Source of the DNA: an uncultured Armatimonadia bacterium
Lineage (GTDB): Bacteria > Armatimonadota > Zipacnadia > CAVVLO01
DNA: 64,000 nucleotides
Reading direction: 5' to 3'
Assembly: GCA_963749155.1 (NCBI GenBank)
Contig: CAVVLO010000002.1
Span: 96,001 to 160,000 of the forward strand
Part shown: in pieces, positions 47,800-61,908 of the stretch
Layout of the letters: the number at the start of each line of letters is the position of its first letter
Numbering within the stretch: the stretch's first letter is position 1
The notes under the pieces: generated by a model
Databases searched by the model: none
Seen by the model: the letters and a program-made list of their open reading frames with translations, nothing else
What the model was told of the DNA's origin: nothing
Made by a program: the position numbers and the translations under genes

Positions 47800-48819
47800 T
47801 TATTGCTTGGCGGCCCGGCTTTCGAAACGCAGCCTGTAGGTCCCGATCCCGAAAAGGTCGCCGGCCCGCAGGCTGCGACTTGTTACAGGCTGACCGTTCA
47901 CCAGCACAGGTTGTCCTGTGCCCAGGTCGCGCAAGGAGCAGCGCCCACTCTCGATTGTGAGTTCGCAATGGAAAGGCGCGACCGAGGGGTCTTTTATCAA
48001 GGTGATATCCGCCTTGGGCGAACTGCCCAGCCGCGTCACATGCTGGTAGAGGATGAACTGCTTGCCCGCAAGTGGACCAGTAAGCACATGCAACCAGAAG
48101 GTCTTGGCAGCTTGTTCGACCGCGCTGATAGCGACTCCCACCAGCAGGCCCATTACCGAGAAGCCAATCAGGCGCGACATAAGGCCGCCGCCGGTGACGA
48201 TGGCAAGGGGATCAAACAAGGCCCCTCCCAGGAAGCCACCGAGCAGCCCACCTATCAGGCCATTGAGGATGCGCTTGCCCGAAAGCCCAGGCAAGCCTTG
48301 CCCAAGCCCCACAAACAGCCCCACCAGTGCCCAGGCAAGCGCGCGCACGAAGAGCTGTGTAGCAGGATTGCCACCTTGCTCTCCGCCCCCAAGAGAGGTA
48401 TATGCAGCCTGGCCAACTACGCTGCCGAAGGCGCCCCCTGCCCCGCCAACCAGCAAACCGATGAGAGCGCCCTTCAGGGCCTTCTCCCAAACCCCGCTTC
48501 CCACGCCTTCGGTTGCTCCGAGCAGCAAGCCTATAGGCCCGCCAATTCCAAGGCCCAGAATCAGCATCTCCAGCATCGGGTTGAGCGCCGAGGCAGCTTC
48601 ATCCGAGATGAAAGGCTCCACCGCGCACCAGCTGAGGAAGCCCCCAATCAGACCTGCAAGTGCCCCAAGCAGCACTGGCGAGAAAAGCACCTGAGAAGCG
48701 CCAGACTTGCCTTTGCCGGAGCCCTCTCCCCAGCCAGGGCCTCCCCCAGCACCGACCTGATCGAAGAGATCGCCGTCATCCTTGAAATCATCACTTGTCA
48801 GTATAAGGCGGTCGGGCAC
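47800..48819 (-). CDS. Gly-rich multi-TM protein with C-terminal FHA domain
   Basis: About 6 GxxxG-rich helices, then GPLAGKQFIL...LGSSPKADI...HCEL...LRDLG...VNGQ...LRAGD..GIG. Confidence 0.82.
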   Translation of the reverse strand: MPDRLILTSDDFKDDGDLFDQVGAGGGPGWGEGSGKGKSGASQVLFSPVLLGALAGLIGGFLSWCAVEPFISDEAASALNPMLEMLILGLGIGGPIGLLLGATEGVGSGVWEKALKGALIGLLVGGAGGAFGSVVGQAAYTSLGGGEQGGNPATQLFVRALAWALVGLFVGLGQGLPGLSGKRILNGLIGGLLGGFLGGALFDPLAIVTGGGLMSRLIGFSVMGLLVGVAISAVEQAAKTFWLHVLTGPLAGKQFILYQHVTRLGSSPKADITLIKDPSVAPFHCELTIESGRCSLRDLGTGQPVLVNGQPVTSRSLRAGDLFGIGTYRLRFESRAAKQ

Positions 48820-49520
48820 TAGTCAAGCACACTCCTGGCTATGGCGTAACCCAGCTGCACAATTAGCTCTTTGAAATTCTTGGTAGAGTCGATGTCTGTG
48901 AAGGTACCGCCCGTCTTCTGCGCCAGCATCAGATAACCTTCAAGGGGCTTCGCGACGACATAACAGGCTAGCCCGCGCTCTTTCAATCCGGTCACTGCAT
49001 CCTCGAGTTTCAGCGTAGTGAAGTCTGTGCCGTCGCCAGCGGTGTGATAACCGGCATCACTAATCAGGATCAGCACTCGCTTGGCCTCGGGCCGGAAGGC
49101 CATCCGCGAGGCACTCATCAACGCTTCAAGCTGATTTTCGGGCTCATCCACGCCACCAACAGCTTGCTGGACGGCCAGCCAGGACTTGAACTCTCCAACA
49201 CTGGGGGTGAGGCTCAGGTCCTCGCGATACACCATCCTGACCTCATCACCGAAGGTCACCAGGCCAAATTTACAGTCTACGCCCTGACCGCTTAATAATT
49301 CGGAGAACTGTTCCGACGCAGCCAAAGTGCCATCGATCTCTTCTCTCATACTGCTGGTTGTGTCGAAAACAAAAACCACGTCCACTGGCTCGGGGCTGAA
49401 GGCCCCTCCCCGCCAGAAGAGCGCCAAAGCGATAAGCCCGGCCCAGCAGGCAACGATCAGCAGCCCAAGGGGAAGGTTGGCAAAGAGAGCTCGGTTGAAT
49501 TCTTTCAGAGAAAAACCCAT
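48819..49520 (-). CDS. Membrane-anchored von Willebrand factor A domain protein
   Basis: N-terminal TM; VDVVFVFDTTSSM (MIDAS-like), GGVDEPE, LILISDA. Confidence 0.88.
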   Translation of the reverse strand: MGFSLKEFNRALFANLPLGLLIVACWAGLIALALFWRGGAFSPEPVDVVFVFDTTSSMREEIDGTLAASEQFSELLSGQGVDCKFGLVTFGDEVRMVYREDLSLTPSVGEFKSWLAVQQAVGGVDEPENQLEALMSASRMAFRPEAKRVLILISDAGYHTAGDGTDFTTLKLEDAVTGLKERGLACYVVAKPLEGYLMLAQKTGGTFTDIDSTKNFKELIVQLGYAIARSVLD

Positions 49521-50635
49521 CAGAGCCCCTCCTTACCCTTGCCCTGGCGCACCCAGAAGACCAGCACTGTGTTGCCCACATGCAGCAAGGCGCCATCTCG
49601 CAGCCTGGCCGATGAGACAGGTTGCCCATCAAGCCCCACTTGAAGTCCTCGCTCGGCCTGCACCTGCCAGCCCGTGCCAGTATGCCGCAGGACGAAGTGA
49701 CGCTCTGCCAGGCCAGGTTCTTTCACCAGCCGCACATCCGCCTCAGGCGAGGAGCCCACCCAATTTTCGGGCTTGTGCAGTATGAACTGCTTACCCCGCA
49801 TCGAGCCTTTGGCCACAGCCAGCCAGGCCTGCTTGAAGACCTCGCCAGCAAGCCCCATCAGCAGTCCAACACAGGCGCCAAGAGCTAGCAGTGCAAGCAG
49901 TCTGCCCAGGCTTGAAGAAGCAACCGCGCCTTTGATAGCCTCAAAGGCGATGCCCCCCAGTAGTCCTCCCAGCGCCCCACCCAGCAGCCCATTGCGCAGC
50001 TTGGCTGCCGAGGTATGCAAAGCCGAACTGCCAATTCCCAGGAAGAAGCCCAGCACCGACCAGCCGACAGCTCGCACAAGTAACGCCGCGGCAGGCCCCA
50101 TAAGATGCCCAGTGGATGCGAACTGGTAAGCCCACTCGGCAAGCGCGCCGCCAAGCGCGCCTCCACAAGCGCCTATCAGCCCCCCCATAAAAGCGTGAGC
50201 CAGAGCCGAAGTGATATCTCCGAAAACCAGTTCCTCAAAACTGCTGAGGAAAAGCCCAATCAGAGCGCCCGCCACCAGGCCATATAAAGCCGTCCTGATT
50301 ATCAGGTCTCCTCCGAAGGAACTCGACCAGGCTAGCAGGATTATCTCTCCAAGCAGCCAGGCGCAAACCGCACCAAGTAGCCCGGCAACCAGCAGCAGGG
50401 CCGGCCTGAGAAGAGCGGAAGCACGACGCGGAGCCACCTCGGGTTTGGCCCAGGCCTCTACTGGAGGGCCAACCGAGGCGCCTGCCGGCTCGAAGACTTC
50501 CTCCTCGCTGAAGTCCTCTGCCCCGAGCACCAGCCTTCCAGAGGCCGGGGGAGGCGCAGGTTCCTCCTCGGCAAAGTCCTCGGAAGTCAACTCCAGTCGC
50601 TCTGGCAGCTCTTCCTTGTCGGGCGTATTGTCCAA
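49520..50635 (-). CDS. Gly-rich multi-TM protein with C-terminal FHA domain (paralog of 47800-48819)
   Basis: Same architecture: RAVGWSVLG, NGLLGGALGGLLGG, GKQFIL, VGSSPEADV, LRDG. Confidence 0.82.
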   Translation of the reverse strand: MDNTPDKEELPERLELTSEDFAEEEPAPPPASGRLVLGAEDFSEEEVFEPAGASVGPPVEAWAKPEVAPRRASALLRPALLLVAGLLGAVCAWLLGEIILLAWSSSFGGDLIIRTALYGLVAGALIGLFLSSFEELVFGDITSALAHAFMGGLIGACGGALGGALAEWAYQFASTGHLMGPAAALLVRAVGWSVLGFFLGIGSSALHTSAAKLRNGLLGGALGGLLGGIAFEAIKGAVASSSLGRLLALLALGACVGLLMGLAGEVFKQAWLAVAKGSMRGKQFILHKPENWVGSSPEADVRLVKEPGLAERHFVLRHTGTGWQVQAERGLQVGLDGQPVSSARLRDGALLHVGNTVLVFWVRQGKGKEGL

Positions 50636-50651
50636 ACCTTACTCCCTGGAC

Positions 50652-51443
50652 CTAGACTGTAGTATCGATTATTCCCTCACTGGCGAGTTTCTGGGCCATC
50701 TGGTCGCGCTTCTCATAACCGGCCTCAAGCGCGGCTTTACTGGCACTGCCGAGTCTGGGAAGTTCAGCAAGCGCCGCTTCATCCACCGGCACCAAGGCTT
50801 GTCTGGCAAGCCCATCAGGCCCGGCCAGGCCCATCAGTTGAAGCAGTTCTTTCATCCTGGCCTCGGTGCCTACAGGACCAAACAACCAAAATCCAACCCG
50901 TCGCAGTCCTTCAGGGCCTTGCTGGAAAGCGCCCAGCTTGCCTTGAACCGGGTCGTGTACCACCGCTACCTGGCCAGGGGCGCTGAAAAAATTCTGCTGG
51001 ATGAACTGGTCGAACTCACTGAGGAAAACCCCAAAGCCCGGATGCGTGTGATACCAGCCCATTATCTTGAGGCCAGGCCAGTTGGCGTCCAGTTCGGCGG
51101 AGAAGGCATTCCAGGTGGCATGGGTGAAGGTAATGTTGGTGTGAGTATGGGTTATATGCTGAGCGGGCAAAGCGTGCTCTAGCTCGATGGCCTCGAAGGG
51201 CGCCCCGCCCGGCAGCTGCCAACGCGAGCGCCTGCCGATTAACGCCCCCCCGAGTTCTCTGCTGCGGTCAGTCATACAGTGAGCGCGCATCGCCGATAAA
51301 GCGCTCAATTTGAAGAAAAGGGGTACCACTGCCGAGGCAGGTCGCTCATACTCGAATACCACCATATCGGTGGTCGCGCGCAGAGGCAACTCCTGCTTCG
51401 GAGCCGCCTCACTCAGGCTGATTTGGAAGTCTTTTTCCGCCAT
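50652..51443 (-). CDS. JAB/MPN+ (JAMM) metallopeptidase, soluble
   Basis: ELGGALIG ... GWYHTHPGFGVFLSEFD. Confidence 0.9.
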   Translation of the reverse strand: MAEKDFQISLSEAAPKQELPLRATTDMVVFEYERPASAVVPLFFKLSALSAMRAHCMTDRSRELGGALIGRRSRWQLPGGAPFEAIELEHALPAQHITHTHTNITFTHATWNAFSAELDANWPGLKIMGWYHTHPGFGVFLSEFDQFIQQNFFSAPGQVAVVHDPVQGKLGAFQQGPEGLRRVGFWLFGPVGTEARMKELLQLMGLAGPDGLARQALVPVDEAALAELPRLGSASKAALEAGYEKRDQMAQKLASEGIIDTTV

Positions 51444-51457
51444 AGCCTCTAACCGGG

Positions 51458-51997
51458 CTAACCGAGCTGGATGTCGAAATCGTCTCCACTGGGCGCTGGC
51501 GCCTGGGCCTCATCAAAGAAAACAATATCGATGTCTGGTTGCCGCAAGTCCACATTCTGCAACGGGAACCGGTTCCTGTTCAACTCTGACCAGCGCGCAG
51601 CTTCCGCGTTAAGGGGGCTTTTGGGATTATATTCCTGATAGGTCAGCATCTCGGCGACCTGATAAACGATGTCGACCAGAGTCTCACCGGCCGCCCAGTG
51701 GTCGCCGATGCAGATATAACTGCCAAAGTTGGGGTGCCAGACAGGATCCAGCATCACTGACTTGGGCTTCTCCCTTGGATAATCAGTGTGCAGATATATC
51801 TCGGCGCGGTGGACCTCCCTTGTGCGGATGTTGCCCTGCGCATCGCGCCAAAGCCCCTTAACCCGGTACGTAATCCGATACCGGTCAGGAGGATTGGCGG
51901 GACCAATCGGCTCCACCGTGATATAGGGGTGACCCGAGAACTCCTCTTGCACTCGGCTCCAGTCGGCGGCAAGTCGCCTGAGTCTTGCAACACTCAT
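51458..51997 (-). CDS. Ubiquitin-conjugating enzyme E2 (UBC fold)
   Basis: RLRRLAAD, DYPREKP, WHPNFGSYICIGDHW (HPN plus catalytic Cys), NPKSPLNAEAA. Confidence 0.92.
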   Translation of the reverse strand: MSVARLRRLAADWSRVQEEFSGHPYITVEPIGPANPPDRYRITYRVKGLWRDAQGNIRTREVHRAEIYLHTDYPREKPKSVMLDPVWHPNFGSYICIGDHWAAGETLVDIVYQVAEMLTYQEYNPKSPLNAEAARWSELNRNRFPLQNVDLRQPDIDIVFFDEAQAPAPSGDDFDIQLG

Positions 51998-52026
51998 CTA
52001 CTTCCTCCTGCCTGAATAAAAAACTA

Positions 52027-52947
52027 CTAGCGTTTTATCATACCAAGTAAGCCGGCTGCATTGACCAAAACCGCTTGTGCCTGCCCATATTCATACGAAA
52101 ATTGCTGTAAGGCACCAACGTTTGCGGCCATCTCGGCCCGGCGCAGGTGAGTAACCGCACTTTGCACCTGGCCGACAAACTGCAGTCTCATTGGATTATC
52201 ACGCCCTAGCTGCACCAAAGGCTCGAGTAAGGCTTCACCTGCCTGACGCTCTCCTTCGGCCCTTGCCTGATCGCCCAGGCTCCAATGCTGGGTGGCCAGA
52301 TTGAGGTGATTCAAAGCCTCATCAGCAATTGCCACGAACCTCGACTCATCGAGGAAAGCCGAACCAGCCAGTCCAATAATAATAATTACAACAGCTACAG
52401 CCATTACCGCAAGCACGCCAAAAGCTACCTGGGGACTAGCGCGCCGGCTAGTTGGCCTGGGCCAGCCAGGAGCTGGACGCGCCCATTGGGGAACAGGCCG
52501 GTTGCCCGGCGCGGTCGGCATTACCGGTCGCTGCCCCTGATTTTGGCGCACCTGGGGCGAATTCTCGCACCCATAGGTCGTACAACCGCCGTTCTCCTGC
52601 CAGCATTCCTCGTGATGGGGGATACCGCAGGTAGGACAAACGATACTCCTCTCCCCAGCATCTATTTCGCACTGACAATAAGGACAATTTCTACCTTTCG
52701 TTGGACTGGCCTCGGACTTCATCTCCACAGGTTCGCCTGGCTCATCGAAGGGAATGGGCGCTGGCGCCGTTTGGGTTGGCCCCAGAGTTATTAGCACCTC
52801 GTCATCCTGGTCTAGTGAAGGCAAATCTGATACGCGTGGCCGTGCAAGCGAGGTCTCGAATATCTCCCCGCATACCGGACACATATAAGGAGCAGGCCCT
52901 GCGTCTCGAAACTCGCGCCTGCATCTTGGACAGACAAGCTCAGCCAT
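52027..52947 (-). CDS. Zn-ribbon plus prokaryotic RING (Prok-RING_1-like) plus TM plus external helical domain; candidate E3
   Basis: CPRC/CPVC; CPYCQCEI...CPTCGIPHHEECWQENGGCTTYGC; TM. Confidence 0.82.
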   Translation of the reverse strand: MAELVCPRCRREFRDAGPAPYMCPVCGEIFETSLARPRVSDLPSLDQDDEVLITLGPTQTAPAPIPFDEPGEPVEMKSEASPTKGRNCPYCQCEIDAGERSIVCPTCGIPHHEECWQENGGCTTYGCENSPQVRQNQGQRPVMPTAPGNRPVPQWARPAPGWPRPTSRRASPQVAFGVLAVMAVAVVIIIIGLAGSAFLDESRFVAIADEALNHLNLATQHWSLGDQARAEGERQAGEALLEPLVQLGRDNPMRLQFVGQVQSAVTHLRRAEMAANVGALQQFSYEYGQAQAVLVNAAGLLGMIKR

Positions 52948-52953
52948 ATATCC

Positions 52954-53640
52954 TCAGTCGGGCACCTGCTCTGATGCTTCGCTTCGGCCGGTCCTCAAAG
53001 GGGCTGGTTGGCCTCTCGCGTTGCATCCGTATGCGGCACAGCCTGCATTTTCGCTCCAGCAGTCGAAATGATGAGGCAGTCCGCACTTGGGGCAAAACAA
53101 CACCACATCGCCTCGCTCGAAAGGGCTCAGGCAGTAGGCACAAATCTGCCCTGCCACTTCGTCGCCAGCTATCACGAGGTCATAACCTGAATGCCTGAAA
53201 CTCGATGCTACTCCTGTATTGCGCGCGGTCTTGATATGAACGAACAACTGCTGTCCCTGGGGCGACACCAGATGCCACAAGACCAGGCCCCACAGTATAG
53301 AGACAAGCGTCATTGCGCCCAGGGCGAATCCCTGCCAGAGACCGTACGAGAGCCCACCCCAGACTGCAAGCCAGAGCGTAAAAATCCCTGACAGTATGCC
53401 GCTGAAAGGGTCTTCGGAATCGATAACCACATCGCGCAGCTCGGTCCAGGTCACTCGCCGACGCCGCGCAAGTATCACTGGCACAGCGAGCGCCACCAGC
53501 ACTCCCGCCAGGAGGAGCGGCCAGGCGAACACCGTTCCAATGAGCGAGGCGCCCAAGGCGATAAATCCGCCAGAAGCCACGAACAGCAACGCGAAGGCAA
53601 GACCTCCGCGCAGCTCCCTGGAGCCAGACTGACTGCGCAC
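52954..53640 (-). CDS. Four-TM protein with C-terminal prokaryotic RING; candidate E3
   Basis: CAYCLSPF...CPKCGLPHHFDCWSENAGCAAYGC. Confidence 0.82.
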   Translation of the reverse strand: MRSQSGSRELRGGLAFALLFVASGGFIALGASLIGTVFAWPLLLAGVLVALAVPVILARRRRVTWTELRDVVIDSEDPFSGILSGIFTLWLAVWGGLSYGLWQGFALGAMTLVSILWGLVLWHLVSPQGQQLFVHIKTARNTGVASSFRHSGYDLVIAGDEVAGQICAYCLSPFERGDVVLFCPKCGLPHHFDCWSENAGCAAYGCNARGQPAPLRTGRSEASEQVPD

Positions 53641-53718
53641 TATACTCCACCGGGCACAGGCGGCCTTAGCTGGCCTGACGCGCCCCCTCTATCATATCAA
53701 ACAGGTGGCGTGTAGGGG

Positions 53719-54351
53719 CTACGTTCCGACCAGAGAAGGCAATCCGCAACACAGGCACGTAAAGAGCAGTATCACCAGTGAGTACACCAGCAGGCTGCGA
53801 CCAAAAGCTCTATCCTCAGGATGGCGCTGCCCCATCAGGATTGCGCCGCCGACAATTCCAGCAAGAGGGCCGATCCCGGTAAAAGCCAGCAGCAGAACCA
53901 TTATGTAGAAAATAGTCCTGACTGCCGCCGGGATCGCCGGCTGTGGCCTCGTCCCTCTGGCAGACCCCCTGTCCCACTGGTCGCCCCGCTGGTCGGACGG
54001 ATAGGGATAGGGCGGCGCCTCTGGACTACGCGGAGCAGTAGGTTCGGTGCGCCCAGCCAGAGCGCGCGCCTGAGGGCTTTCGCTGCAGCCATAAGTTGTG
54101 CAACCCTCGTTCTCTCGCCAGCATTCGAGGTGATGCGGGGTAGCGCAAACTGGACAGCTATGAGTCTGATCTGAAGGGCCAATCTCACTTTGGCAATACG
54201 GACAGAGTTTGCCCACTACGCTTGCTGGCGCCTCTGGCTGGCGAGGGGCTGCGGGCTGCCTTGTAAACATCAACTGGCAATGGGGGCAGAAGTGCATCTC
54301 CCCCGGCTCGTCCTCAAAATTCTGGTTGCAGCGTGGGCACTGGACCTGCAA
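53719..54351 (-). CDS. Zn-ribbon plus prokaryotic RING plus two TMs; candidate E3
   Basis: CPRC/CPHC; CPYCQSEI...CPVCATPHHLECWRENEGCTTYGC; TTG start with AGGAG RBS. Confidence 0.82.
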   Translation of the reverse strand: MQVQCPRCNQNFEDEPGEMHFCPHCQLMFTRQPAAPRQPEAPASVVGKLCPYCQSEIGPSDQTHSCPVCATPHHLECWRENEGCTTYGCSESPQARALAGRTEPTAPRSPEAPPYPYPSDQRGDQWDRGSARGTRPQPAIPAAVRTIFYIMVLLLAFTGIGPLAGIVGGAILMGQRHPEDRAFGRSLLVYSLVILLFTCLCCGLPSLVGT

Positions 54352-54369
54352 GTAGCAGTTCTCCTTACA

Positions 54370-55059
54370 CTAGCTCTTGAGCCATAAGGCAAAGCCGCGC
54401 AGTAACGCCAGTTCTACCACTCCAAGCAAAATCAGCAACCCCAGGGTGCGCAAGGGAGCTTTCCTCAGCATACTGATGCCCGAGGTACGTCTGTCATGCA
54501 GCGCGAGCGCTGCCAGGTTGATTAGCGCCCCTGCAAGGAGCACCCCAAGCAAACTGAGTCCATCGAGCACAATCCAGCCTGGTCTGATAAGCAATACCAA
54601 CAGGCTGACCCCAGCCAGTGTAACCAGACCAAGCCCAAAGGGTTCCCAGACAGATTTGAACATTGGGCGCCGCGGGGGCCTGGCCGGGGCATGGTTAATA
54701 ATAACCAGCAGCAGACTGGCCAGGGCAGGCCCGGCGAAAGCCCCTGTTGCCAAACGGGTCAGGTTGTCAGTTTCTCTGAAGCCCAGACCAGCAGAAATAG
54801 CATCCAGCCCCATCGGTGCAAGTAAAGCCAGCAAGGCAAGCATACGCCAGACATCGCCTGGATAGTCGGCTTTCGCGCGCCCAAGTGCAGCCAGAAGGAG
54901 CACTCCGACAACAAGTCCCAGATGCACTCCCGTGCAACGCGCGCAGAGGGCCAGTTGCACTTCGCCAGGAGCGAAGGAGTGGCTGGGCATCCGATGGCAT
55001 AAACAGGCGCCTAGCTGATCAGCGCTTTGCCGAAACAACTCGACCCACTCGGGAGCCAC
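54370..55059 (-). CDS. DUF2085 family membrane protein
   Basis: LCHRMPSHSF...LCARCTGVHLG, PMGLD, NLTRLATG. Confidence 0.85.
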   Translation of the reverse strand: MAPEWVELFRQSADQLGACLCHRMPSHSFAPGEVQLALCARCTGVHLGLVVGVLLLAALGRAKADYPGDVWRMLALLALLAPMGLDAISAGLGFRETDNLTRLATGAFAGPALASLLLVIINHAPARPPRRPMFKSVWEPFGLGLVTLAGVSLLVLLIRPGWIVLDGLSLLGVLLAGALINLAALALHDRRTSGISMLRKAPLRTLGLLILLGVVELALLRGFALWLKS

Positions 55060-55061
55060 AA

Positions 55062-56074
55062 TTACGTCCCAGCCGGCTGCTCGCCGCTCGCAGGAAGAAT
55101 CAGTAACCGCCCTGGCAACAATCTGTCAGGATTCACAATCCCATTCAGCCTGGCAATTTCCACCCAGCGCTCGCGAGCCCCGAGTTTTTGCTCCGCTATA
55201 CTGCTTAAGGTATCGCCGGCGCTACCTGATAGATTTGGTAAACCGCCTCGGCTTGGGGTTGAACGGCAGTTGGAGCAGGCTCGGTCTGTACGCCCGCAGC
55301 AATCGGTGGAGGGAGCTTGGCCAGTTCAGCCTGGGCCGCATAGAGTTTGATTTTTACATCTGACAATTCAGTTTCCAGACGCTGGACCCTGGTTGTCAGC
55401 GCAAGCAGCAGCACGCAGGCAGCCAGCAAGAGCGCCCAGGGAGCCCAGAGGGCCAACCTCGAGGCCGGTTGCGCAGCCGGCTGAAGGGCCTCGGGCGCCA
55501 GCCCCTCGTGCACCAGGTGATAGCCGGGCAGCAGTTCAGGCCCTGAGTCGGTATTTCCGAAAAAGCCTTGTTCTTTGGCCCGAGGGTCGTAAACCAGCGC
55601 CACCTGAGAGGGCATATTGAAAAAATTGCCCTGGATAAAAAGGTCGTGACCTGACAGGAATATGCCGAATCCAGGATGAGAGTGCACCCAGCCGACGACT
55701 TTCTGGTCAGGATAGTCGGCTTCCAGTACCTCATAAATGTGGTTCCAGGCTTCGTGGGTGAAGGTAAGGCTGGCTCTGCGCGAGTCGGCGCCCTCGGCGG
55801 CGATCATCCCAGTCACATGGATGTGCCAGCGCCCGCGCTTTTCGTGGGAAGTACCCACTAGCACCCCGCCCAGCTCATTGGAGAGATCCTGACTAAGGCA
55901 GGCGACGATCTGATCCCAGACCGGGGCGTCCAGATAGACTTGTACGCGCGCGGACTCAGGCTGTCCAATAGCCTCGCAGTGTTCGGGAGCAGGCAGTTTG
56001 GAGGCAGAGCCTCCCCCGCCCTCTACGGCAGGGGCAAGCTCTAATTCGAAGCCTTCTTCGTTGTTATCAGTCAT
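55062..56074 (-). CDS. JAB/MPN+ peptidase plus TM plus coiled coil plus LysM (frameshift near 55217)
   Basis: ELGGVLVG, GWVHSHPGFGIFLSGHD; TM; restoring one base gives YQVAPGDTLSSIAEQKLGARERWVEIARLNGIVNPDRLLPGRLLILP, with stop at 55062. Confidence 0.85.
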
Positions 56075-56078
56075 CTGA

Positions 56079-57410
56079 TCAGATTCTCGACAGGTTGCGC
56101 TGGATACTGGCAGGCTTGCGTTTATGCTCGAGGCGAGGCTCCATACTGGTCGCCAGCGCCCCAAGGGCGCGAGCGCGATCCGCGGCCAACAAGTAATGCT
56201 TCATCTCGAGTCCTACCCGCGCGGTCACGATGTCGTAGAGGGGCAGGCCAATCTCAGCCAGTGTCATATCGCCGAACTCTTCGGTCCCGCTGTAGGTATG
56301 AGCCAGCTCGGTATCGCGCGCTTCTCCACAGCCCGGGCACCTGGCATCTTTTTCGGACAGTCTGCCAAGCAGTTTGAAAACAGGTTCTCTTGTTCCGCAC
56401 TTTTGGCACAGGAAGGCCGCAACCAGCTCGCGGTCCAGTTCTACCAGCGCCTCAGGTCCCAGATCAGTTCTGGCCCGTTCCAGCAAAGCGTTGAAGGTCA
56501 GGTCAGCGACTCCAGCTTCAAGGGGGATTACTTCCTCAAAGGTAAAATGGGACAGGCAATCTTCTTTCCTTGGATAGTCTACAAGGAAAGAATCGTGAGT
56601 CAGCCCGTTAAAGACCCAGCCCTTGCCGTAAAGCACAGGGAGTTCGGGGCGAGCGTGCAAAAGTTTTAACGCCTCCAGCACTTGTACACCTGCCACGATG
56701 GAAGCACTGGTTGGAGTTGTCGGCACCTTCCCCTCGAGCAACTGGTCCCGGCTGAGCAGAGCGCAGGACTTGCGAGCCGCCAGCAGCTTGGTGTCGAATT
56801 CGTTCATCGTGCATTCATAGCAAGACGAGTCCGGTGGCACAAAAACTCGCGCGATGCCATTCAACACTTCTATGGCGCCATCTATCCAGGGAGTGTTTAC
56901 CTTCCAGCAGGCCTGGTTGATACCGAGTCTGGCCTCCCGGTTGTCAAGCCCGCCGAGGACGACATCCATCTCCAGGAAAACGCCAAGCCCAATATCGGTC
57001 AGCACATTGCCCTGCACCGCGTGAACCGCACAGTCAGGGTTGATTTCCCTGACTGTTTCAGCAGCCACTTCGGCCTTCGGGCGTCCCTCGTCTTCGACCC
57101 GGAATAAAACCGAACGCGTAAGGTTGGAATGCTCTACCGTATCGAGATCAAGCACCAGCAGATTGCCCACGCCAAGCAAAGCGAGATTCTTGAGCAGCTC
57201 GTTTCCAAGCGCGCCGGCGCCTACAATCAGCACCGAAGAAGCTTTGAGCAGAGTTTGATCCCACCAGGGCACGAGGAAGAAACGCGCATAACGGCTGGCT
57301 TCTTCCTCCATACTGACAGTGAGAGGCCCGCCTTCCGCGTCCTTGCCCGAAGGCGCGGGCGCGGGGCCTTCTACAGCAGCCCCGAGCTCAATATCAAAGT
57401 CATCACTCAT
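56079..57410 (-). CDS. E1 ubiquitin-activating-like enzyme (ThiF family with C-terminal extension)
   Basis: VGAGALGNELLKNLALLGVG, DLDTVEHSNLTRSVLFR, GLDNREAR, CYEC, candidate catalytic Cys in RKSCALL. Confidence 0.92.
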   Translation of the reverse strand: MSDDFDIELGAAVEGPAPAPSGKDAEGGPLTVSMEEEASRYARFFLVPWWDQTLLKASSVLIVGAGALGNELLKNLALLGVGNLLVLDLDTVEHSNLTRSVLFRVEDEGRPKAEVAAETVREINPDCAVHAVQGNVLTDIGLGVFLEMDVVLGGLDNREARLGINQACWKVNTPWIDGAIEVLNGIARVFVPPDSSCYECTMNEFDTKLLAARKSCALLSRDQLLEGKVPTTPTSASIVAGVQVLEALKLLHARPELPVLYGKGWVFNGLTHDSFLVDYPRKEDCLSHFTFEEVIPLEAGVADLTFNALLERARTDLGPEALVELDRELVAAFLCQKCGTREPVFKLLGRLSEKDARCPGCGEARDTELAHTYSGTEEFGDMTLAEIGLPLYDIVTARVGLEMKHYLLAADRARALGALATSMEPRLEHKRKPASIQRNLSRI

Positions 57411-57413
57411 CTG

Positions 57414-57683
57414 CTAACCAGCCGTGACTTCTGGCTGCAACCGCATCACGTCGCCATCCTTCACGCCAGCGTCGGCAAGGCTTTCGTCGTCCGTAAGTTG
57501 CTTGCCCGACTGCTTGTGGACCACTTTGTAAGAGAGCGGTTGGCCGTCAGGGCCGGTCGCCGGCAGTTTCATCATCTGCACAAGCTTGGCAACAATACGA
57601 CGCACCGCTACATCATCCGGCACGGTCGCCTGCTGTTCTTTGTTGCCAGTTACATCAATTATGGTCACGTTGACCTGTCCCAC
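57414..57683 (-). CDS. Ubiquitin-like beta-grasp protein (YukD/EsaB-like) ending in Gly
   Basis: VNVTIID...VPDD...GKQLTDDESLADAGVKDGDVMRLQPEVTAG-stop; GTG with AGGAGG RBS. Confidence 0.9.
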   Translation of the reverse strand: MGQVNVTIIDVTGNKEQQATVPDDVAVRRIVAKLVQMMKLPATGPDGQPLSYKVVHKQSGKQLTDDESLADAGVKDGDVMRLQPEVTAG

Positions 57684-57695
57684 TGCTGGCCTCCT

Positions 57696-58706
57696 TTAGT
57701 GAAGCTGGATGTCTATATCATCCAAATTTTCTTCTGGTTCTTCGCGTGGCGCCTGAGGTTGCGGGGTTGTCGGCCCGCCGAAATGGATCTCGGGCTCAGG
57801 CCCCACCTCCTGCGGTTGGACTGGCTGCTGGCCTGGCATCGGAGTGTGCGGGCCTTTCTTCATGAACAGCCAGGTGATTACCGTTGCAATCGCCATTATG
57901 ATGAATATGACAAGTACCCAAACCGCCGGATTGGCGGGAGGCTTTTCTTCGGCTGGCACTTCAGGCACATCGGTCTCAGGAGGGCTGGGAGTCTCGCCCG
58001 CCGGAGGCCTGGCGCCTTCGACAAGCTTAAGGCTGAATTGCTTATGACTTGGGACTACCAGGGCTGAGACGCCTTGCTGATTGAGCAGCTTCAACAAGTC
58101 GTTGCTTGGCAGGGCAAAGCCCATACCCTGGGCGCCTTTCAGTACGCGCACAGCTACCCCCAGCACCTCGCCCTGCGAGTTGAGCAGCGGTCCACCACTG
58201 TTGCCAGGATTTAGCGCCGCATCTGTCTGCAGGAATGGCTGGTCCTTTTCTTCCGAAGGCAAGGAGCTGATGATGCCCCGAGTAGCCGAATCGATGGCAA
58301 AAGGCGAACCAATCGCAACGACTGAATCGCCCTGCTTTACGCTTGCCGAATCGGCAAGGGCCAGTGCAGGCGAATTGTCCACCGGGACTTTCAGCAACGC
58401 CACGTCGGCCTTCTCATCCCGGAAGGTTACCTGGGCCTGGGTCTTCTTCTTGCCGTATAACTCGACATCCACCATCGGATGCCCGCCTACGACATGCGCG
58501 CAGGTCACCGCGACGCCATCGGTGTTGATGAAGAAACCAGTGCCAATCCGTTGCTTGCCCTCTTCATCTACCGAGACCTGAAGGACAGCTGGTTTGGCTC
58601 CTTCAATCAGGGCAGGGGTCGGCTTGTCACCAGACTGACAGAAGGCCGGTAAGCCTGAAATCGTTATCCAGCCAGTAAGGAGCATTGCGAGCACTAGCCA
58701 CTTCAT
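57696..58706 (-). CDS. Membrane-anchored trypsin-like (HtrA-type, no PDZ) serine protease
   Basis: Signal peptide; GTGF, TCAHVV, DVALL, TDAALNPGNSGGPL; C-terminal TM and acidic cytoplasmic tail. Confidence 0.9.
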   Translation of the reverse strand: MKWLVLAMLLTGWITISGLPAFCQSGDKPTPALIEGAKPAVLQVSVDEEGKQRIGTGFFINTDGVAVTCAHVVGGHPMVDVELYGKKKTQAQVTFRDEKADVALLKVPVDNSPALALADSASVKQGDSVVAIGSPFAIDSATRGIISSLPSEEKDQPFLQTDAALNPGNSGGPLLNSQGEVLGVAVRVLKGAQGMGFALPSNDLLKLLNQQGVSALVVPSHKQFSLKLVEGARPPAGETPSPPETDVPEVPAEEKPPANPAVWVLVIFIIMAIATVITWLFMKKGPHTPMPGQQPVQPQEVGPEPEIHFGGPTTPQPQAPREEPEENLDDIDIQLH

Positions 58707-58748: not shown

Positions 58749-58777
58749 AGTATAAACGACCCTGGGCTACCCGACAA
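58749..58777 (-). promoter_or_regulatory. Sigma70-type promoter for the ubiquitin-like operon
   Basis: Minus strand TTGTCG-17 nt-TATACT, about 40 nt upstream of ATG 58706. Confidence 0.55.
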
Positions 58778-58812: not shown

Positions 58813-60948
58813 CTAGAGGCCGCCCTGTATCACCCAGTCGAGAGCTGGCTCGGGCTTGCGTTTGCCTGTTGCGTAGTCATAGATGGCCAGGTTCACCAGC
58901 CTGGCTGCCCTGACAAGCTCTATATAGGGCCTGTCAGCGACATCAACAAATCCGATATTGTAGTTCTCTCCATCGAACCGCCCAGTGAGCGGTTGGTCTG
59001 CATATTCGAACCAATGGACGCCTACCAGATTGGGCAGAGCCGCGGCGCTTGAAACATAATGAGCGTAGGCCTGGGCGCGCTCAGGCTGCGACGCGACTGG
59101 ACGCAGTCCGCCTGCAAGCCCACTGTCGAGTGCCCCAAAATGGAACTCTCCCCCGATAAAAGGTTTACGCGCCAGTTCGTAAAACTGCTGAGCCTGCTCA
59201 GGATTTATCTCATACAGATAGGGGTTGAAGGACACTACATCACAGTATTCTCCTGCGGCTTTGATGGCTTCTTCCGAATAGGCGGCAAAACGCGCGCCCA
59301 GATAAAGATGACCGGGATCGTGACGCTTGAGTACTGCGCGAACGGTACGGAAATACTGCCGGGCAAATTCAAGCAGATAGACGCCGAGGTCAGCCTTGGC
59401 AGCCTCCGGAAGCTCGCGCACCTCGACAGGCGCGTCTTGCCTGAAAGCCTCGAAGCTTGCGAAACTGGTGCCCCAGGCCGCATTGAGGCGCGCCAGGTCC
59501 TGGCCATAAGTGGCAAAGAGCTGTCTCATAAGCGCGCGCCTGGCGAAGGACTTCTCCGGCAAGGCCAGTACCTGAGAGGCCAAATCCAGTTTGCCTGCTT
59601 CGTCCCAGCCTGCCCAAGGTAGTTCATTATCGAAAAAGTAACCGAGTATCCAGGGATCGGCGGCAAGCTCCTCCAGTTGAGACGCAAAGCTGGCCTCAAG
59701 CTGTTTTGCGAACTCGGGATCAAAGGGATCAGGCATACGTTCATTTACTTTGGGTACCCCGCCTGGAGTGCCCAGAGCGACCACATAAGCCGTCCTGCCG
59801 CGAGTTTGGAAGTCTCGGTCCGACCAGTTGCCAATTGTGTTGAAGCCCCAGGCGCGCAGCCGGTCGAGGCTGACCCGGATCCAGCTTTCGCGCCACTCAG
59901 GCCCATATTTACGAATCAGGTTGGCGGTGTAGAGGCTGACCCGATTGGGATCTCCCCAGCCTGCAGTGCGCGCTGGTCCGAAAGTGGCATCCTCCAGGGC
60001 AGGCAGCCACTTGAAAAGAGCCTCTCTGCCCGAGAGGGGGGTTGCGGTGTCGCCAAGCCCCATCACGTCCATCCCGACCGACCAGAACAGCCGCCCCTCG
60101 GGATCGACCAGCCACCAGCGCCCACCATGCTGAGTGGTTCGGAAGCGTCCGGTGGCCTCAAGCTTGGGGCCAGCCGCCCAACCGCCATACTTGTCGAGCC
60201 AGGCCGGGAGCATCACCTGGGCGAGCTGCCGGGCTTCTCCCTCAGCCTGAAGACGCAATTGACCGTCCGACTCGACCTTCACCTCAGCCGACAGAAAGCC
60301 GGGTTGTCCGAACTCATCCAGCAGCCAACTGGGCGCCTGACCTTTTACCAAACCTGCCCTCTCGACCAGCAGCTTGCAGGATTCGGTTGGATTTACCAGG
60401 AAGAGCACCAGCCGCATCATCCGCTGCCAGTAGATGGGTGGCCCGTAAAGCTGGCGCGGGATGAAGCCCTCTCCTGCCATTGGAGGCCAGCGCATCGCCT
60501 CATCCGTCCAGGTTGTAGCAAGGCGGATCCGGCTCAGGCGATGGGGCAGCAAGTAGAATTCGAACGTCTTCCAGCCTTCCTTGCCATCAGAGCCAAGCGA
60601 ATCAAGACGCAGGTGAACAAGCTGAGGCCTCGTAGAGGGATTCCATATTTCGAGTTCAAAAGCTGGGGCCTTCGTCCAGTCAGTCTCCAACCCAAGGGCC
60701 GAAAATTCCAGCGACAATCCGGGATATTCGGCCGGCTGGAAGGTAACTTCGACGACCTGCCCTCCGGCTGGCGCCTCGACAAGTCGGGCGGTCGAACTGG
60801 AAAAACTGGCCGCCTCCAGCAGCTCTTGTCCAGCCAGCGAGAAGGCCAGCGCGCTTGGGGAGAGGGCAAAAAGCAGTAATAAGACGGTCCAGCAAGCCTT
60901 CAAGACAATCCCCCCCAAGCCTGGCTGAAAGGTTAATTCGTGTTCCAC
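58813..60948 (-). CDS. Secreted GH50 (beta-agarase-like) glycoside hydrolase
   Basis: GRWWLVDPEG, WGFNTIGNWSD, GYFFDNEL, GEFHFGA, HWFEYADQPLTGRFDGENYNIG. Start codon uncertain. Confidence 0.85.
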   Translation of the reverse strand: MEHELTFQPGLGGIVLKACWTVLLLLFALSPSALAFSLAGQELLEAASFSSSTARLVEAPAGGQVVEVTFQPAEYPGLSLEFSALGLETDWTKAPAFELEIWNPSTRPQLVHLRLDSLGSDGKEGWKTFEFYLLPHRLSRIRLATTWTDEAMRWPPMAGEGFIPRQLYGPPIYWQRMMRLVLFLVNPTESCKLLVERAGLVKGQAPSWLLDEFGQPGFLSAEVKVESDGQLRLQAEGEARQLAQVMLPAWLDKYGGWAAGPKLEATGRFRTTQHGGRWWLVDPEGRLFWSVGMDVMGLGDTATPLSGREALFKWLPALEDATFGPARTAGWGDPNRVSLYTANLIRKYGPEWRESWIRVSLDRLRAWGFNTIGNWSDRDFQTRGRTAYVVALGTPGGVPKVNERMPDPFDPEFAKQLEASFASQLEELAADPWILGYFFDNELPWAGWDEAGKLDLASQVLALPEKSFARRALMRQLFATYGQDLARLNAAWGTSFASFEAFRQDAPVEVRELPEAAKADLGVYLLEFARQYFRTVRAVLKRHDPGHLYLGARFAAYSEEAIKAAGEYCDVVSFNPYLYEINPEQAQQFYELARKPFIGGEFHFGALDSGLAGGLRPVASQPERAQAYAHYVSSAAALPNLVGVHWFEYADQPLTGRFDGENYNIGFVDVADRPYIELVRAARLVNLAIYDYATGKRKPEPALDWVIQGGL

Positions 60949-60991: not shown

Positions 60992-61908
60992 GTGCGAAAA
61001 CAAGTCGTGTTTGGCGTTTTACTTACCTTCGTCCTGCTCGTGTGTTTCGGGCTGGGTTATTGGTGGTCGGTGCCCAATCGGGTAGCGGGCCGTTTTCCGG
61101 TGGCCCCTGAGTCCGATCGATTGACAGCCTGATACAGAGCTGGCTCTGGTGCTTGGTCCTGGTGGCTCAAGAGGGGCAGCTCATATAGGGGCGCTCAAAG
61201 CCCTGAGAGAAGCCAAACTCCAGCCGGGCCTCGTTCTCGGGGTAAGCGCCGGCTCTATCGCCGCCTGCGCTTATAGCCTTGGATTGCCCCTGGACGACCT
61301 GAGGCAGTTGTCAATCAACACTTCCACTGCCGCGATCACCTGGCCCTCTTTTTCGATCAGGGCGCCTTTCAGTCAGACTAACCTGCGTCGGTATCTGACC
61401 CGGGTATTTGGTGAGGCTCAACTTGAACAGTTGCCCATCAAATGTGTAATCGTCGCGACTGATCTGATATCCGGCGAACCTTTGTATCTGACGTCTGGTT
61501 CGGTTGTGGACGCCTGCCTGGCCAGTTGCGCCATACCGGGCACTTTCCAGGCCAAGGAGCTTGGAGGGCGTTATTATATCGACGGGGGGATCTCCGATCC
61601 GCTGCCCGGTGCGCAAGGCGCGCTCACTTGGGGCGAAGCAGGTTATCGTCCTTGATCTCGGAGTCCTTGGGCCCGATTTTCCAGCTCGCAAAAGTTTTAT
61701 CCACACCCTCGGCAAAGCTTTGAATGTGTCCATAGAAAAGCTCGCAGCCTGGGAAGCGGCCGAAGCGGACCTGGTAGTGCGTCCAAAGGTCAGCCAGGTC
61801 GACATGTTTGATTATTCACAAGGCCCTTTTGTGTATCAGCAAGGCTACGAGGCCACTCGCAAGGCGCTTGAAGAGGCGTCTCCTGGATTGCACAAGCCCA
61901 GCCGCTAG
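60992..61908 (+). CDS. Patatin-like phospholipase with probable N-terminal anchor (frameshifts near 61124 and 61607)
   Basis: GPGGSRGAAHIG, GVSAG, ASCAIPG, DGG; upstream frame MRKQVVFGVLLTFVLLVCFGLGYWW; downstream frame VRKARSLGA...RPKV. Confidence 0.8.

Follow-up and report, generated by a model that had tools for sequence, protein, structure and literature searches.

Introduction

Can a bacterium run a ubiquitin-type tagging cascade, with an activating enzyme (E1), a conjugating enzyme (E2) and a RING ligase (E3), at its cell membrane? The question is raised by a locus of thirteen genes in an uncultured Armatimonadia bacterium (GenBank assembly GCA_963749155.1), contained in a stretch of 64,000 nucleotides that is referred to here as the window (contig CAVVLO010000002.1, positions 96,001 to 160,000 of the forward strand; coordinates below are counted from its first letter). 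The original prediction, made from the letters of the window and its open reading frames (ORFs), had described the locus as a complete, membrane-associated set of a ubiquitin-like protein (Ubl), E1, E2, RING and JAB genes. Judging from sequence, we consider it probable that the locus encodes a working, membrane-localised Ubl conjugation cascade of the YukD-Ubl/E1/E2/Prok-RING/JAB type. The earlier description stood as regards the intact catalytic residues and the membrane anchoring of most of the proteins, but the class to which the set belongs is not new.

Gene order and domain content of the operon

The operon comprises 13 co-oriented ORFs on the minus strand, running from 58706 to 47800 in the ORF listing and its translations. 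A profile search returned a Pfam match above the gathering cut-off for 13/13 ORFs, in the order Trypsin_2, YukD, ThiF, JAB and DUF2085 (g1 to g5), followed by three Prok-RING_1 domains, UQ_con, Prok-JAB, the FHA-type Yop-YscD_cpl, VWA and FHA (g6 to g13). From the coordinates, the genes are tightly spaced, with 1-bp overlaps at g11/g12 and g12/g13 and the widest gap, 78 bp, at g6/g7. Strongly hydrophobic 19-residue segments were detected in 9 of the 13 proteins by a hydropathy scan. The number and shared orientation of the genes, their order from the protease to the second FHA gene, a spacing from a 1 bp overlap to 78 bp and nine membrane-bound products had all been foreseen, and the hidden Markov model search that had been proposed gave the predicted family for every ORF. 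The operon is real, nearly intact and was read correctly at the outset, except for a shifted LysM domain and the promoter. The genes that would make up the conjugation system are the following (scores are Pfam bit scores).

57696..58706, minus strand: g1, membrane-anchored trypsin-like serine protease (Trypsin_2, 108 bits)
57414..57683, minus strand: g2, YukD-type Ubl of 89 aa, ending in Gly without extension (YukD, 50.9 bits against a cut-off of 27)
56079..57410, minus strand: g3, E1 (ThiF, 178.8 bits)
55205..56074, minus strand: g4, JAB (JAMM) peptidase with one transmembrane (TM) segment (JAB, 36.2 bits)
55065..55217, minus strand: LysM domain of g4, in another frame (LysM, 30.4 bits against a cut-off of 20.9, with 55065-55259 read)
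53719..54351, minus strand: g6, Zn ribbon and Prok-RING_1, with two TM segments at the C-terminus (Prok-RING_1, 46.2 bits against a cut-off of 29.1)
52954..53640, minus strand: g7, four TM segments and a C-terminal Prok-RING_1 (Prok-RING_1, 40.7 bits)
52027..52947, minus strand: g8, Zn ribbon and Prok-RING_1 followed by one TM segment and a C-terminal domain of some 100 aa (Prok-RING_1, 44 bits)
51458..51997, minus strand: g9, E2 with UBC fold, HPN and Cys96, and a motif-bearing tail (UQ_con, 35.2 bits against a cut-off of 27)
50652..51443, minus strand: g10, soluble JAB (JAMM) peptidase (Prok-JAB, 28.8 bits)

Catalytic residues and predicted folds

The C-terminal Gly claimed for the Ubl proved to be invariant. 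Gly at position 89, after LRLxPEITAG, was found in 56/56 aligned family members, and the window copy ends there; K53 and K57 were likewise invariant in the 56 members, as was Arg81. Some relatives carry 1 to 6 residues beyond the Gly, which implies processing. The family is small (169 clusters at E ≤ 1e-5 in 5.8 billion proteins) and its clusters are named only 'EsaB/YukD family' or 'hypothetical'. When its profile was compared with solved structures, ubiquitin or 'Ubiquitin-like protein' chains were matched weakly, only at E 0.015 to 0.2.

The E1 is composed of a disordered N-terminus bearing a short terminal motif, a ThiF adenylation domain, a flexible loop with Cys216, a Zn ribbon and a putative C-terminal ubiquitin-fold domain (UFD). 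The residues claimed for it (G64xG66xxG69, C197/C200 and C216) are present and, together with C285/H288 and the four Cys of the ribbon, were invariant in the 19/19 sequences of the orthologue alignment. In the AlphaFold2 model (pLDDT 83.9, pTM 0.83), residues 1-37 are disordered and the loop 213-221 is flexible, a position for C216 that is expected of an E1 catalytic cysteine. In the Protein Data Bank (PDB), the model found its best matches in ThiF/MoeB, as regards the adenylation domain, and in UBA3, aligned over 455-459 columns. Modelled alone, the C-terminal 139 residues gave a pLDDT of 93.5, and the top 7 of 48161 chains in a VIA-align comparison were all eukaryotic E1 UFDs, at Z 6.0-7.5. 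These belong to SUMO E1s (5fq2_B, Z 7.5; 6cwy_D, 7.4; 3ong_A, 6.4), a plant SUMO E1 (6gum_B, 6.6) and NEDD8 E1s (2nvu_B, 6.7; 1y8x_B, 6.3; 3gzn_B, 6.0), and were followed by generic Ubl and UBX folds at Z ≤ 4.5. This clean sorting of E1 UFDs above generic Ubl folds supports, despite Z-scores of middling size, the reading of the modelled domain as a UFD, the E2-recruiting domain of eukaryotic E1s. Within the E1 gene, at 57160-57163, one contig of a related metagenome run (X1) shows a compensating loss and gain of one base, which is either strain variation or a contig error.

The HPN...C signature claimed for the E2 was also recovered: H88-P89-N90 and C96 were invariant in 21/21 sequences, the second E2 paralogue of the relatives included. 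Among solved structures, the E2 family profile matched eukaryotic UBCs best (4gpr_A at 2.4e-12, then Ubc4, Ubc13 and UbcH5), and the first 60 matches contained no bacterial defence E2. The JAMM string HxH(x7)SxxD, the catalytic motif expected of the JABs, can be read in the translations of both g4 and g10. In the protease, a signal peptide and the protease domain are followed by a linker, a single TM segment (about residues 264-282) and a tail on the cytoplasmic side; the catalytic H71, D101 and S170 were invariant in the alignment of 15/15 orthologues.

Conservation and distribution of the operon family

The synteny search that had been proposed was run over a set of 34 related loci, namely 18 obtained from a scan of one genome per species and 16 further loci of the phylum. 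The 18 loci carry close E2 relatives and come mostly from metagenome-assembled genomes of Armatimonadota, with additional members from Abditibacteriota, WS1 and Phycisphaerae/Tepidisphaerales. The core order protease-Ubl-E1-JAB/LysM-RING(s)-E2 was kept in 9/18 of them and was seen again in further Armatimonadota loci. The 16 further loci are graded, from the full set with a TM-FHA gene after E2/JAB (L024, L028, L029, L030 and partly L041), through a minimal Ubl-E1-RING-RING-JAB-E2 arrangement (L032-L034), to E1/E2/JAB sets, three of which have a distant Ubl (L035-L039). The RING paralogues and the domains fused to them differ between genomes. In two Armatimonadota loci a HicB/HicA toxin-antitoxin pair lies within the operon, between the E1 and the JAB-LysM gene (L010:8224-8866 and L022:8266-8643).

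The E2 was detected in 57/401 sampled Armatimonadota genomes (E ≤ 1e-10), and its occurrence divides the phylum by family, with families f2 (4/4), f3 (10/11), f6 (12/12) and f9 (2/2) positive and families f4 (0/13), f15 (0/27), f21 (0/47) and f24 (0/23) negative. The pattern is that of an operon family inherited vertically in whole Armatimonadota families. Among Planctomycetota, the E2 was found in 43/301 genomes. The genes are dispersed there, with a Zn-ribbon-E2 standing alone, a Ubl-E1 pair elsewhere and an FHA-RING gene elsewhere again. In three Planctomycetota sets whose genes are scattered over several contigs (L047, L048 and L049), the RING proteins start with an FHA domain, giving an FHA-RING-TM fusion.

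In most relatives, the protease gene is preceded by one for a second E2 (e.g. L009:3818-4321 and L010:5153-5653). It is 31-40% identical to g9 and keeps HPN and the Cys, with a 5-residue insert before the latter. Three second-E2 queries at E ≤ 10 found no E2 besides g9 in the genome of the window. In related strains from sediment, wastewater and digester metagenomes (three studies), the whole operon was present including its accessory genes, mostly at 95-99% identity. Among the strain differences listed inside g13, 17/21 fell at third codon positions; differences placed mostly there are a signature of purifying selection.

A conserved terminal peptide on writers, erasers and candidate readers

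SUMO-interacting motifs (SIMs) and the Atg8-binding LC3-interacting region or Atg8-interacting motifs (LIR/AIM) consist of a short aliphatic strand with an acidic flank, lie in disordered termini and occur in either polarity. Peptides of this appearance were found at three termini of the operon proteins, scored here with a position-specific scoring matrix (PSSM).

57699..57722, minus strand: SIM-like peptide DDIDIQLH, extreme C-terminus of the g1 tail (PSSM 21.9 bits, genome rank 1)
57381..57404, minus strand: SIM-like peptide DDFDIELG, E1 N-terminus, in the segment 1-37 with pLDDT<50 (PSSM 16.9 bits, rank 4)
51461..51484, minus strand: SIM-like peptide DDFDIQLG, extreme C-terminus of the E2 (PSSM 14.3 bits, rank 10)

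The motif is strongly conserved at the ends of the protease and the E2. All 16/16 complete protease orthologues terminate in D-D/S-D-[ILV]-x-I-x-L-x, and D-D-[ILV]-x-I-x-[LF] followed by exactly one residue closes 21/24 complete main-E2 orthologues, the three exceptions being the Planctomycetota Zn-ribbon E2s. The E1 N-termini are looser: 7/26 E1 ORF rows reached at least 11 bits within the first ten residues, and the others have less strict forms. Many JABs begin with the motif as well, some RING proteins have it behind their RING domain, and many E2 tails contain two copies; in the Ubls it was found in 0/20. By eye, TM-FHA N-termini carry a variant of the motif and a reversed form in which the aliphatic strand precedes the acidic residues. 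The g11 N-terminus has two reversed motifs, RLELTSEDF and RLVLGAEDF, and the Planctomycetota E1s open with the reversed form, again as read by eye.

The PSSM was derived from 37 orthologue termini and scanned over about 3369 approximate genes of the genome of the window. It returned 35 sites of at least 11 bits, with the three operon sites in the top 10. The site of rank 2 (C3:377173-378681, position 53, 20.7 bits) lies inside a folded ADP-ribosylglycohydrolase domain (residues 14-303) and was dismissed as chance. In g1, the motif is placed on the cytoplasmic tail, beyond the TM segment of an otherwise exported protease; its two invariant aliphatic residues are I333 and L335. Across the related loci, the E2 tail scored at least 14 bits in every locus that has a Ubl at least 50% identical to g2 and a readable E2, and below 7 bits in L035-L039, where the Ubl is distant or none was found. 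The pattern suggests that the motif accompanies the ITAG-type Ubl, these loci being kin and not independent cases.

The protease tail was chosen for complex prediction because it has no other reason to meet the Ubl. With the tail (residues 307-336), the Ubl gave an ipSAE of 0.43 (0.42/0.43/0.44), against 0.00 for the best of three controls, with a partner pLDDT of at least 54 and a contact agreement of at least 93%, which the tool ranks as 'weak support'. The mark used for such predictions was reached by 116/157 solved complexes and 2/215 mismatches, and the passing scores of 0.60 or lower comprise only 18/157 solved complexes together with both passing mismatches.

The peptide has the short aliphatic core, the acidic flank and the disordered setting of a SIM or LIR, E1 residues 1-37 having a pLDDT<50. 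As with SIM and LIR, it occurs in forward and reversed forms in disordered termini of E1, E2, deconjugating enzymes and candidate readers. It differs in that its putative partner is a YukD-type Ubl in a bacterium and in that it often stands exactly one residue from the C-terminus. Our leading hypothesis, suggested by the modelled complex, is that the terminal peptide docks on the Ubl. A full-text literature search, which most subscription journals lay beyond, found no mention of the motif.

Accessory membrane proteins and the frameshift in g4

The remaining four genes of the operon encode membrane proteins outside the conjugation set.

54370..55059, minus strand: g5, DUF2085 polytopic membrane protein (DUF2085, 74.9 bits)
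49520..50635, minus strand: g11, polytopic Gly-rich membrane protein with a C-terminal FHA-fold domain (Yop-YscD_cpl, 40.4 bits)
48819..49520, minus strand: g12, N-terminal TM segment and vWA domain (VWA, 38.6 bits; Integrin_beta, 48.7 bits)
47800..48819, minus strand: g13, second polytopic membrane protein with an FHA-fold domain (FHA, 44.5 bits)

A TM-FHA gene was found inside the cluster in 8/34 loci, among them a Tepidisphaeraceae contig (L023) in which the RING protein, too, carries a fused FHA domain, and g13 is the orthologue of this gene. In a protein-atlas cluster of TM-FHA look-alikes, 11% of the members have a UQ_con domain. Proteins resembling g12 occurred in 22/401 genomes of the phylum at up to 43% identity, and those compared lie on other contigs than the E2. 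The co-occurrence of membrane genes with the enzymes, on which the original prediction depended, was found in the 34 loci for one TM-FHA, the protease and the JAB-TM-LysM gene, and failed for the vWA, the DUF2085 and the second TM-FHA gene. The vWA and DUF2085 proteins were consequently rejected as core parts within the phylum, having no match in the related loci, and all three are treated, from their occurrence, as accessories of this lineage. In L041, the TM-FHA gene of the cluster is succeeded on its own strand by a row of three secretin-family genes (L041:2315-7263, minus); these may be a link to an outer-membrane channel or a coincidence.

The FHA domains were compared with the canonical phosphothreonine-binding form. 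Aligned with mycobacterial GarA, g13 has Ser in place of the pocket Arg and Ala in place of the Ser, with the His kept, so that neither the Arg of GR nor the Ser of SxxH is present; the same Arg/Ser loss was read in g11 by eye only. No kinase gene was found in the operon. The replaced pocket residues and the missing kinase weaken a phospho-relay reading, and the idea that the FHA domains read a TxxD phosphosite in the g11 and g13 N-termini was dropped on the same grounds. It is more likely, as judged from these residues and the lack of a kinase gene, that the domains dock partners rather than read phosphorylation.

The JAB-TM-LysM protein of the original prediction stood in its parts, the JAB, TM and LysM sequences all being present, but not as one ORF in this assembly, where the LysM lies in another frame. 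The likely start of g4 is the ATG at 56074; the longest ORF begins at the TTG at 56164, and the TM segment corresponds to residues 237-255 of this long ORF. The frame breaks near 55216 and the ORF stops at 55205, without a LysM match in its own frame. When Logan contigs of four metagenome runs (X1, X2, X3 and X5) were compared with the operon, one extra base was seen behind 55216 in X2, X3 and X5, that is in 3/3 runs covering the site, X1 having no contig there. With this base, the g4 frame continues into the LysM. JAB-TM-LysM is one ORF in 13 related loci (including L006, L008, L009, L010, L012, L016, L022, L024, L030, L040, L041 and L043). The window therefore carries a one-base loss in g4, which is either an assembly error or a strain-specific lesion.

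Comparison with known systems

Prokaryotic RING fingers that work with E1s, E2s, JABs and Ubls were reportedly described by Burroughs, Iyer and Aravind in 2011 (Mol Biosyst). Their E1s are said to have a UFD and their YukD-like Ubls to be possible substrates of conjugation, and we take that study to be the source of Pfam Prok-RING_1. The window holds the defining parts of this class, a YukD-family Ubl with an exposed Gly, an E1 with its Cys and a predicted UFD, an HPN-Cys E2, and RINGs and JAMM peptidases in synteny. It shares with the 2011 class the YukD Ubl, the ThiF E1 plus UFD, the UQ_con E2 with HPN-Cys, TM-bearing Prok-RING_1 proteins, JABs and a tight operon. By its protein families the operon is a member of the 2011 YukD-Ubl/E1/E2/Prok-RING/JAB class, which is not new. 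That such neighbourhoods were known from comparative genomics, as had been stated, is borne out by citing papers, which credit bacterial operons with E1, E2, sometimes E3, and JAB to Burroughs, Iyer and Aravind 2011 (PMC3417536, PMC11601596, PMC11601603), and by the RING family in Pfam. Compared with its relatives, this copy has extra DUF2085, TM-vWA and second TM-FHA genes and is without the second E2; these accessory genes and the missing E2 make it a local variant.

The proteins of the archaeal ubiquitin operon are presumably soluble and proteasome-linked, whereas the RINGs, one JAB and their partners are membrane-anchored here, a periplasmic protease and LysM belong to the core, and no link to a proteasome was found. 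The modifier of the archaeal operon is ubiquitin-like and ends in Gly-Gly, whereas the present Ubl is of the YukD family, ends in Thr-Ala-Gly and has its Pfam match to YukD, not to ubiquitin. The likeness lies in the compact arrangement of Ubl, E1, E2, RING and JAB, the archaeal RING being small and the JAB Rpn11-like in the reports on Caldiarchaeum and Asgard operons. The eukaryote-type operon of Caldiarchaeum subterraneum was described by Nunoura 2011 (PMC3082918), and an archaeal E1/E2/RING cascade was reconstituted in vitro (Hennell James 2017, PMC5654768). For a bacterial E1/E2/RING system, the literature search, with the journal coverage given above, found no experimental study, in agreement with the earlier statement that none was known.

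The conjugation parts E1, E2 and JAB are shared with Bil and with CBASS Cap2/Cap3 (PMC11601596, PMC11601603, PMC10557695). Both are anti-phage systems, and no RING E3 is described for them in the consulted parts of PMC11601596 and PMC11601603. No PADLOC model matched the Ubl, E2, RINGs, JAB2, FHAs, vWA or DUF2085, and only the E1 adenylation part gave weak matches, to CBASS E1-E2 (over residues 30-204) and BilD, at 5e-16 to 3e-8 (BilD 2.7e-8). An assignment to Bil was rejected because of the three RING E3 genes and the YukD-type Ubl, with the Ubl, E2 and JAB2 lacking a Bil model match. Type II CBASS was rejected as well, since the operon encodes its E1 and E2 separately and neither the 13 ORFs nor the flanks include a CD-NTase family; the Cap2 of that system, a fusion of E2 and E1 that acts on a CD-NTase, has no equivalent here. 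The Ubl belongs to the same Pfam beta-grasp family as YukD/EsaB of the type VII secretion system (YukD, 50.9 bits; PMC1779556, PMC12637312). That YukD is reported as not conjugated (Iyer 2006, PMC1779556) and stands beside EssC/ESAT-6 genes, whereas g2 ends in an invariant Gly beside E1, E2, RING and JAB genes. A type VII secretion context was rejected, as no EssC/FtsK-like or WXG100 family was found in the 13 ORFs and 12 flanking ORFs. In NCBIfam, the operon proteins had only sub-threshold relatives (HtrA-like and ThiF/MoeB-like) and no named system.

Promoter and flanking genes

The single sigma70-like promoter of the original prediction did not hold up.

58749..58777, minus strand: promoter-like site in the 106-bp gap 5' of g1 (9/12 match, unproven)

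The region contains 3 such sites against 4.3 +/- 2.0 in shuffles, a frequency no better than chance, and the site at 58777-58749 was set aside. The flanks of the operon are unrelated to it. Directly upstream lies a gene for a 711-aa secreted-looking protein without a Pfam match (58813-60948, minus), and downstream a convergent 653-aa ORF ends 9 bp from g13. Farther neighbours in the window include glycoside hydrolases, MgtE and NIF3. A short ORF for a patatin-like phospholipase (61149-61655, plus; 168 aa, 110 bits) overlaps the opposite-strand ORF 61311-61805; its domain match fills all 168 aa and the ORF looks truncated or mis-started. Elsewhere in the genome, two more Prok-RING_1-like genes (C3:95897-96172, L044:6691-7524, and C1:317159-317611, L045:7035-7634) stand beside glycoside hydrolase genes, away from any Ubl, E1 or E2 gene. 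The C1 copy was above the cut-off in the genome search, yet its 199-aa ORF has no Pfam match.

Proposed mechanism and rival explanations

In the cascade that we consider probable, the E1 would adenylate Gly89 of the Ubl and form a thioester at Cys216, from which the Ubl would be passed to Cys96 of the E2. The membrane RINGs would direct it to target lysines on the cytoplasmic side of the membrane, and the conjugation would be undone by the JABs. The acidic-hydrophobic peptide (DD-[ILV]-x-I-x-[LF]) would dock E1, E2, JABs, the protease tail and TM-FHA on the Ubl, free or conjugated, and would act as SIM and LIR do for SUMO and Atg8, assembling the enzymes at the membrane. The protease and the TM-FHA proteins would thereby become readers of the tag, and the Ubl is probably linked to writers, erasers and candidate readers alike through the shared peptide. 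Our best guess at the output is that envelope or membrane proteins undergo regulated turnover or are otherwise controlled, with LysM linking the system to the cell wall; a relay of envelope signals or membrane-protein quality control may be involved, as the original prediction proposed. A far-reaching extension, which we hold to be decidedly unlikely, joins this SIM/LIR-like docking code to a 'tag inside, cut outside' proteolysis around a bacterial Ubl. An envelope protein would receive the tag on its cytoplasmic face from the membrane RINGs, this tag would recruit the protease by its cytoplasmic tail with the active site in the periplasm, and the cell-wall-tethered JAB would reset the tag. 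In a bolder variant, drawn by analogy with Atg8-PE, the target of the Ubl may be the amine of an envelope lipid or peptidoglycan precursor.

Several observations weigh against a working cascade of this composition. No RNA data set was listed as covering the operon, and the single operon with a single promoter is read from gene spacing alone. The g4 gene is frameshifted in this assembly, the FHA pocket of g13 is degenerate, g5 and g12 have no counterparts in the 34 related loci at 1e-5, and the second TM-FHA does not co-occur with the enzymes there. For the E1 C-terminal domain, the UFD Z-scores of 6-7.5 are middling and Foldseek found no match in the PDB at E ≤ 0.001. The score of the Ubl-tail complex is weak and came without an interface, and the calibration makes a pass at this level likelier to be wrong than right unless the prior is strong.

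The main competitor is an anti-phage or conflict system working like Bil, in which the Ubl would be ligated to phage proteins at the membrane with the JABs as a check. The parts list in common with Bil (Ubl, E1, E2 and JAB) speaks for it, as do the weak matches of the E1 adenylation domain to the CBASS E1-E2 and BilD models (5e-16 to 3e-8), the HicAB pair inside the operon in L010 and L022, a restriction-modification system adjoining a lone E2 in L007 and the variable RING paralogues with their fused domains. Aravind and colleagues (PMC3417536) also proposed that such operons are mobile conflict elements. The distribution, however, is all-or-none by family and not sporadic, the window has glycoside hydrolases, MgtE, NIF3 and similar genes around the operon instead of defence genes, PADLOC was silent on the Ubl, E2, RINGs, JAB2, FHAs, vWA and DUF2085, and a cell-wall-binding LysM and a periplasmic protease are fixed core parts. 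We regard a Bil-like role as unlikely, though it deserves some weight. An envelope-linked housekeeping or regulatory role is favoured over phage defence because of the vertical, family-wise distribution and the fixed LysM and protease parts.

The two other explanations concern the strain and the chemistry. If the g4 frameshift is real, the system could be decaying in this strain and the operon no longer be fully functional; the base absent relative to the contigs of 3/3 related runs covering the site, the LysM out of frame and the failure to find the relatives' second E2 in this genome would fit such decay. Against decay, which we hold to be very improbable, stand the intact state of the 12 remaining ORFs, whose catalytic residues are invariant, and the unaffected JAB domain and TM segment of g4. 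One base of difference in an assembly of 7 contigs may moreover stem from misassembly, and X1, the run closest to the window, has no contig there. Scarcely credible is a ThiS/MoaD-like sulfur-carrier pair of Ubl and E1 with the other genes as unrelated neighbours. The E1 adenylation domain does score with ThiF/MoeB models and folds like ThiF/MoeB, but the equivalog scores are far under their cut-offs (ThiF 132.8 against 275; MoeB 117 against 266), the operon has no rhodanese, thiamine or molybdopterin genes, E2, RING and JAB co-occur with the Ubl-E1 pair across two phyla, and the E1 has a predicted UFD.

Significance

In bacteria, the demonstrated cases of Ubl conjugation are so far all anti-phage systems without an E3 (CBASS, Bil and Bub), and a three-enzyme E1-E2-RING cascade has so far been reconstituted only from an archaeon. 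The operon family discussed here is a compact bacterial version with a eukaryote-like E1 (UFD) and E2 (HPN-Cys), tied to the membrane and the cell wall. The window copy is one ordinary, slightly damaged member among many, and the value lies in the class rather than in this locus. The class offers a tractable system for RING-dependent Ubl tagging in a cell without a proteasome, and an eight-residue docking peptide common to writers, erasers and candidate readers is a hypothesis that can be tested cheaply. If true, 'tag inside, cut outside' would amount to proteasome-free, transmembrane, ubiquitin-dependent degradation in bacteria.

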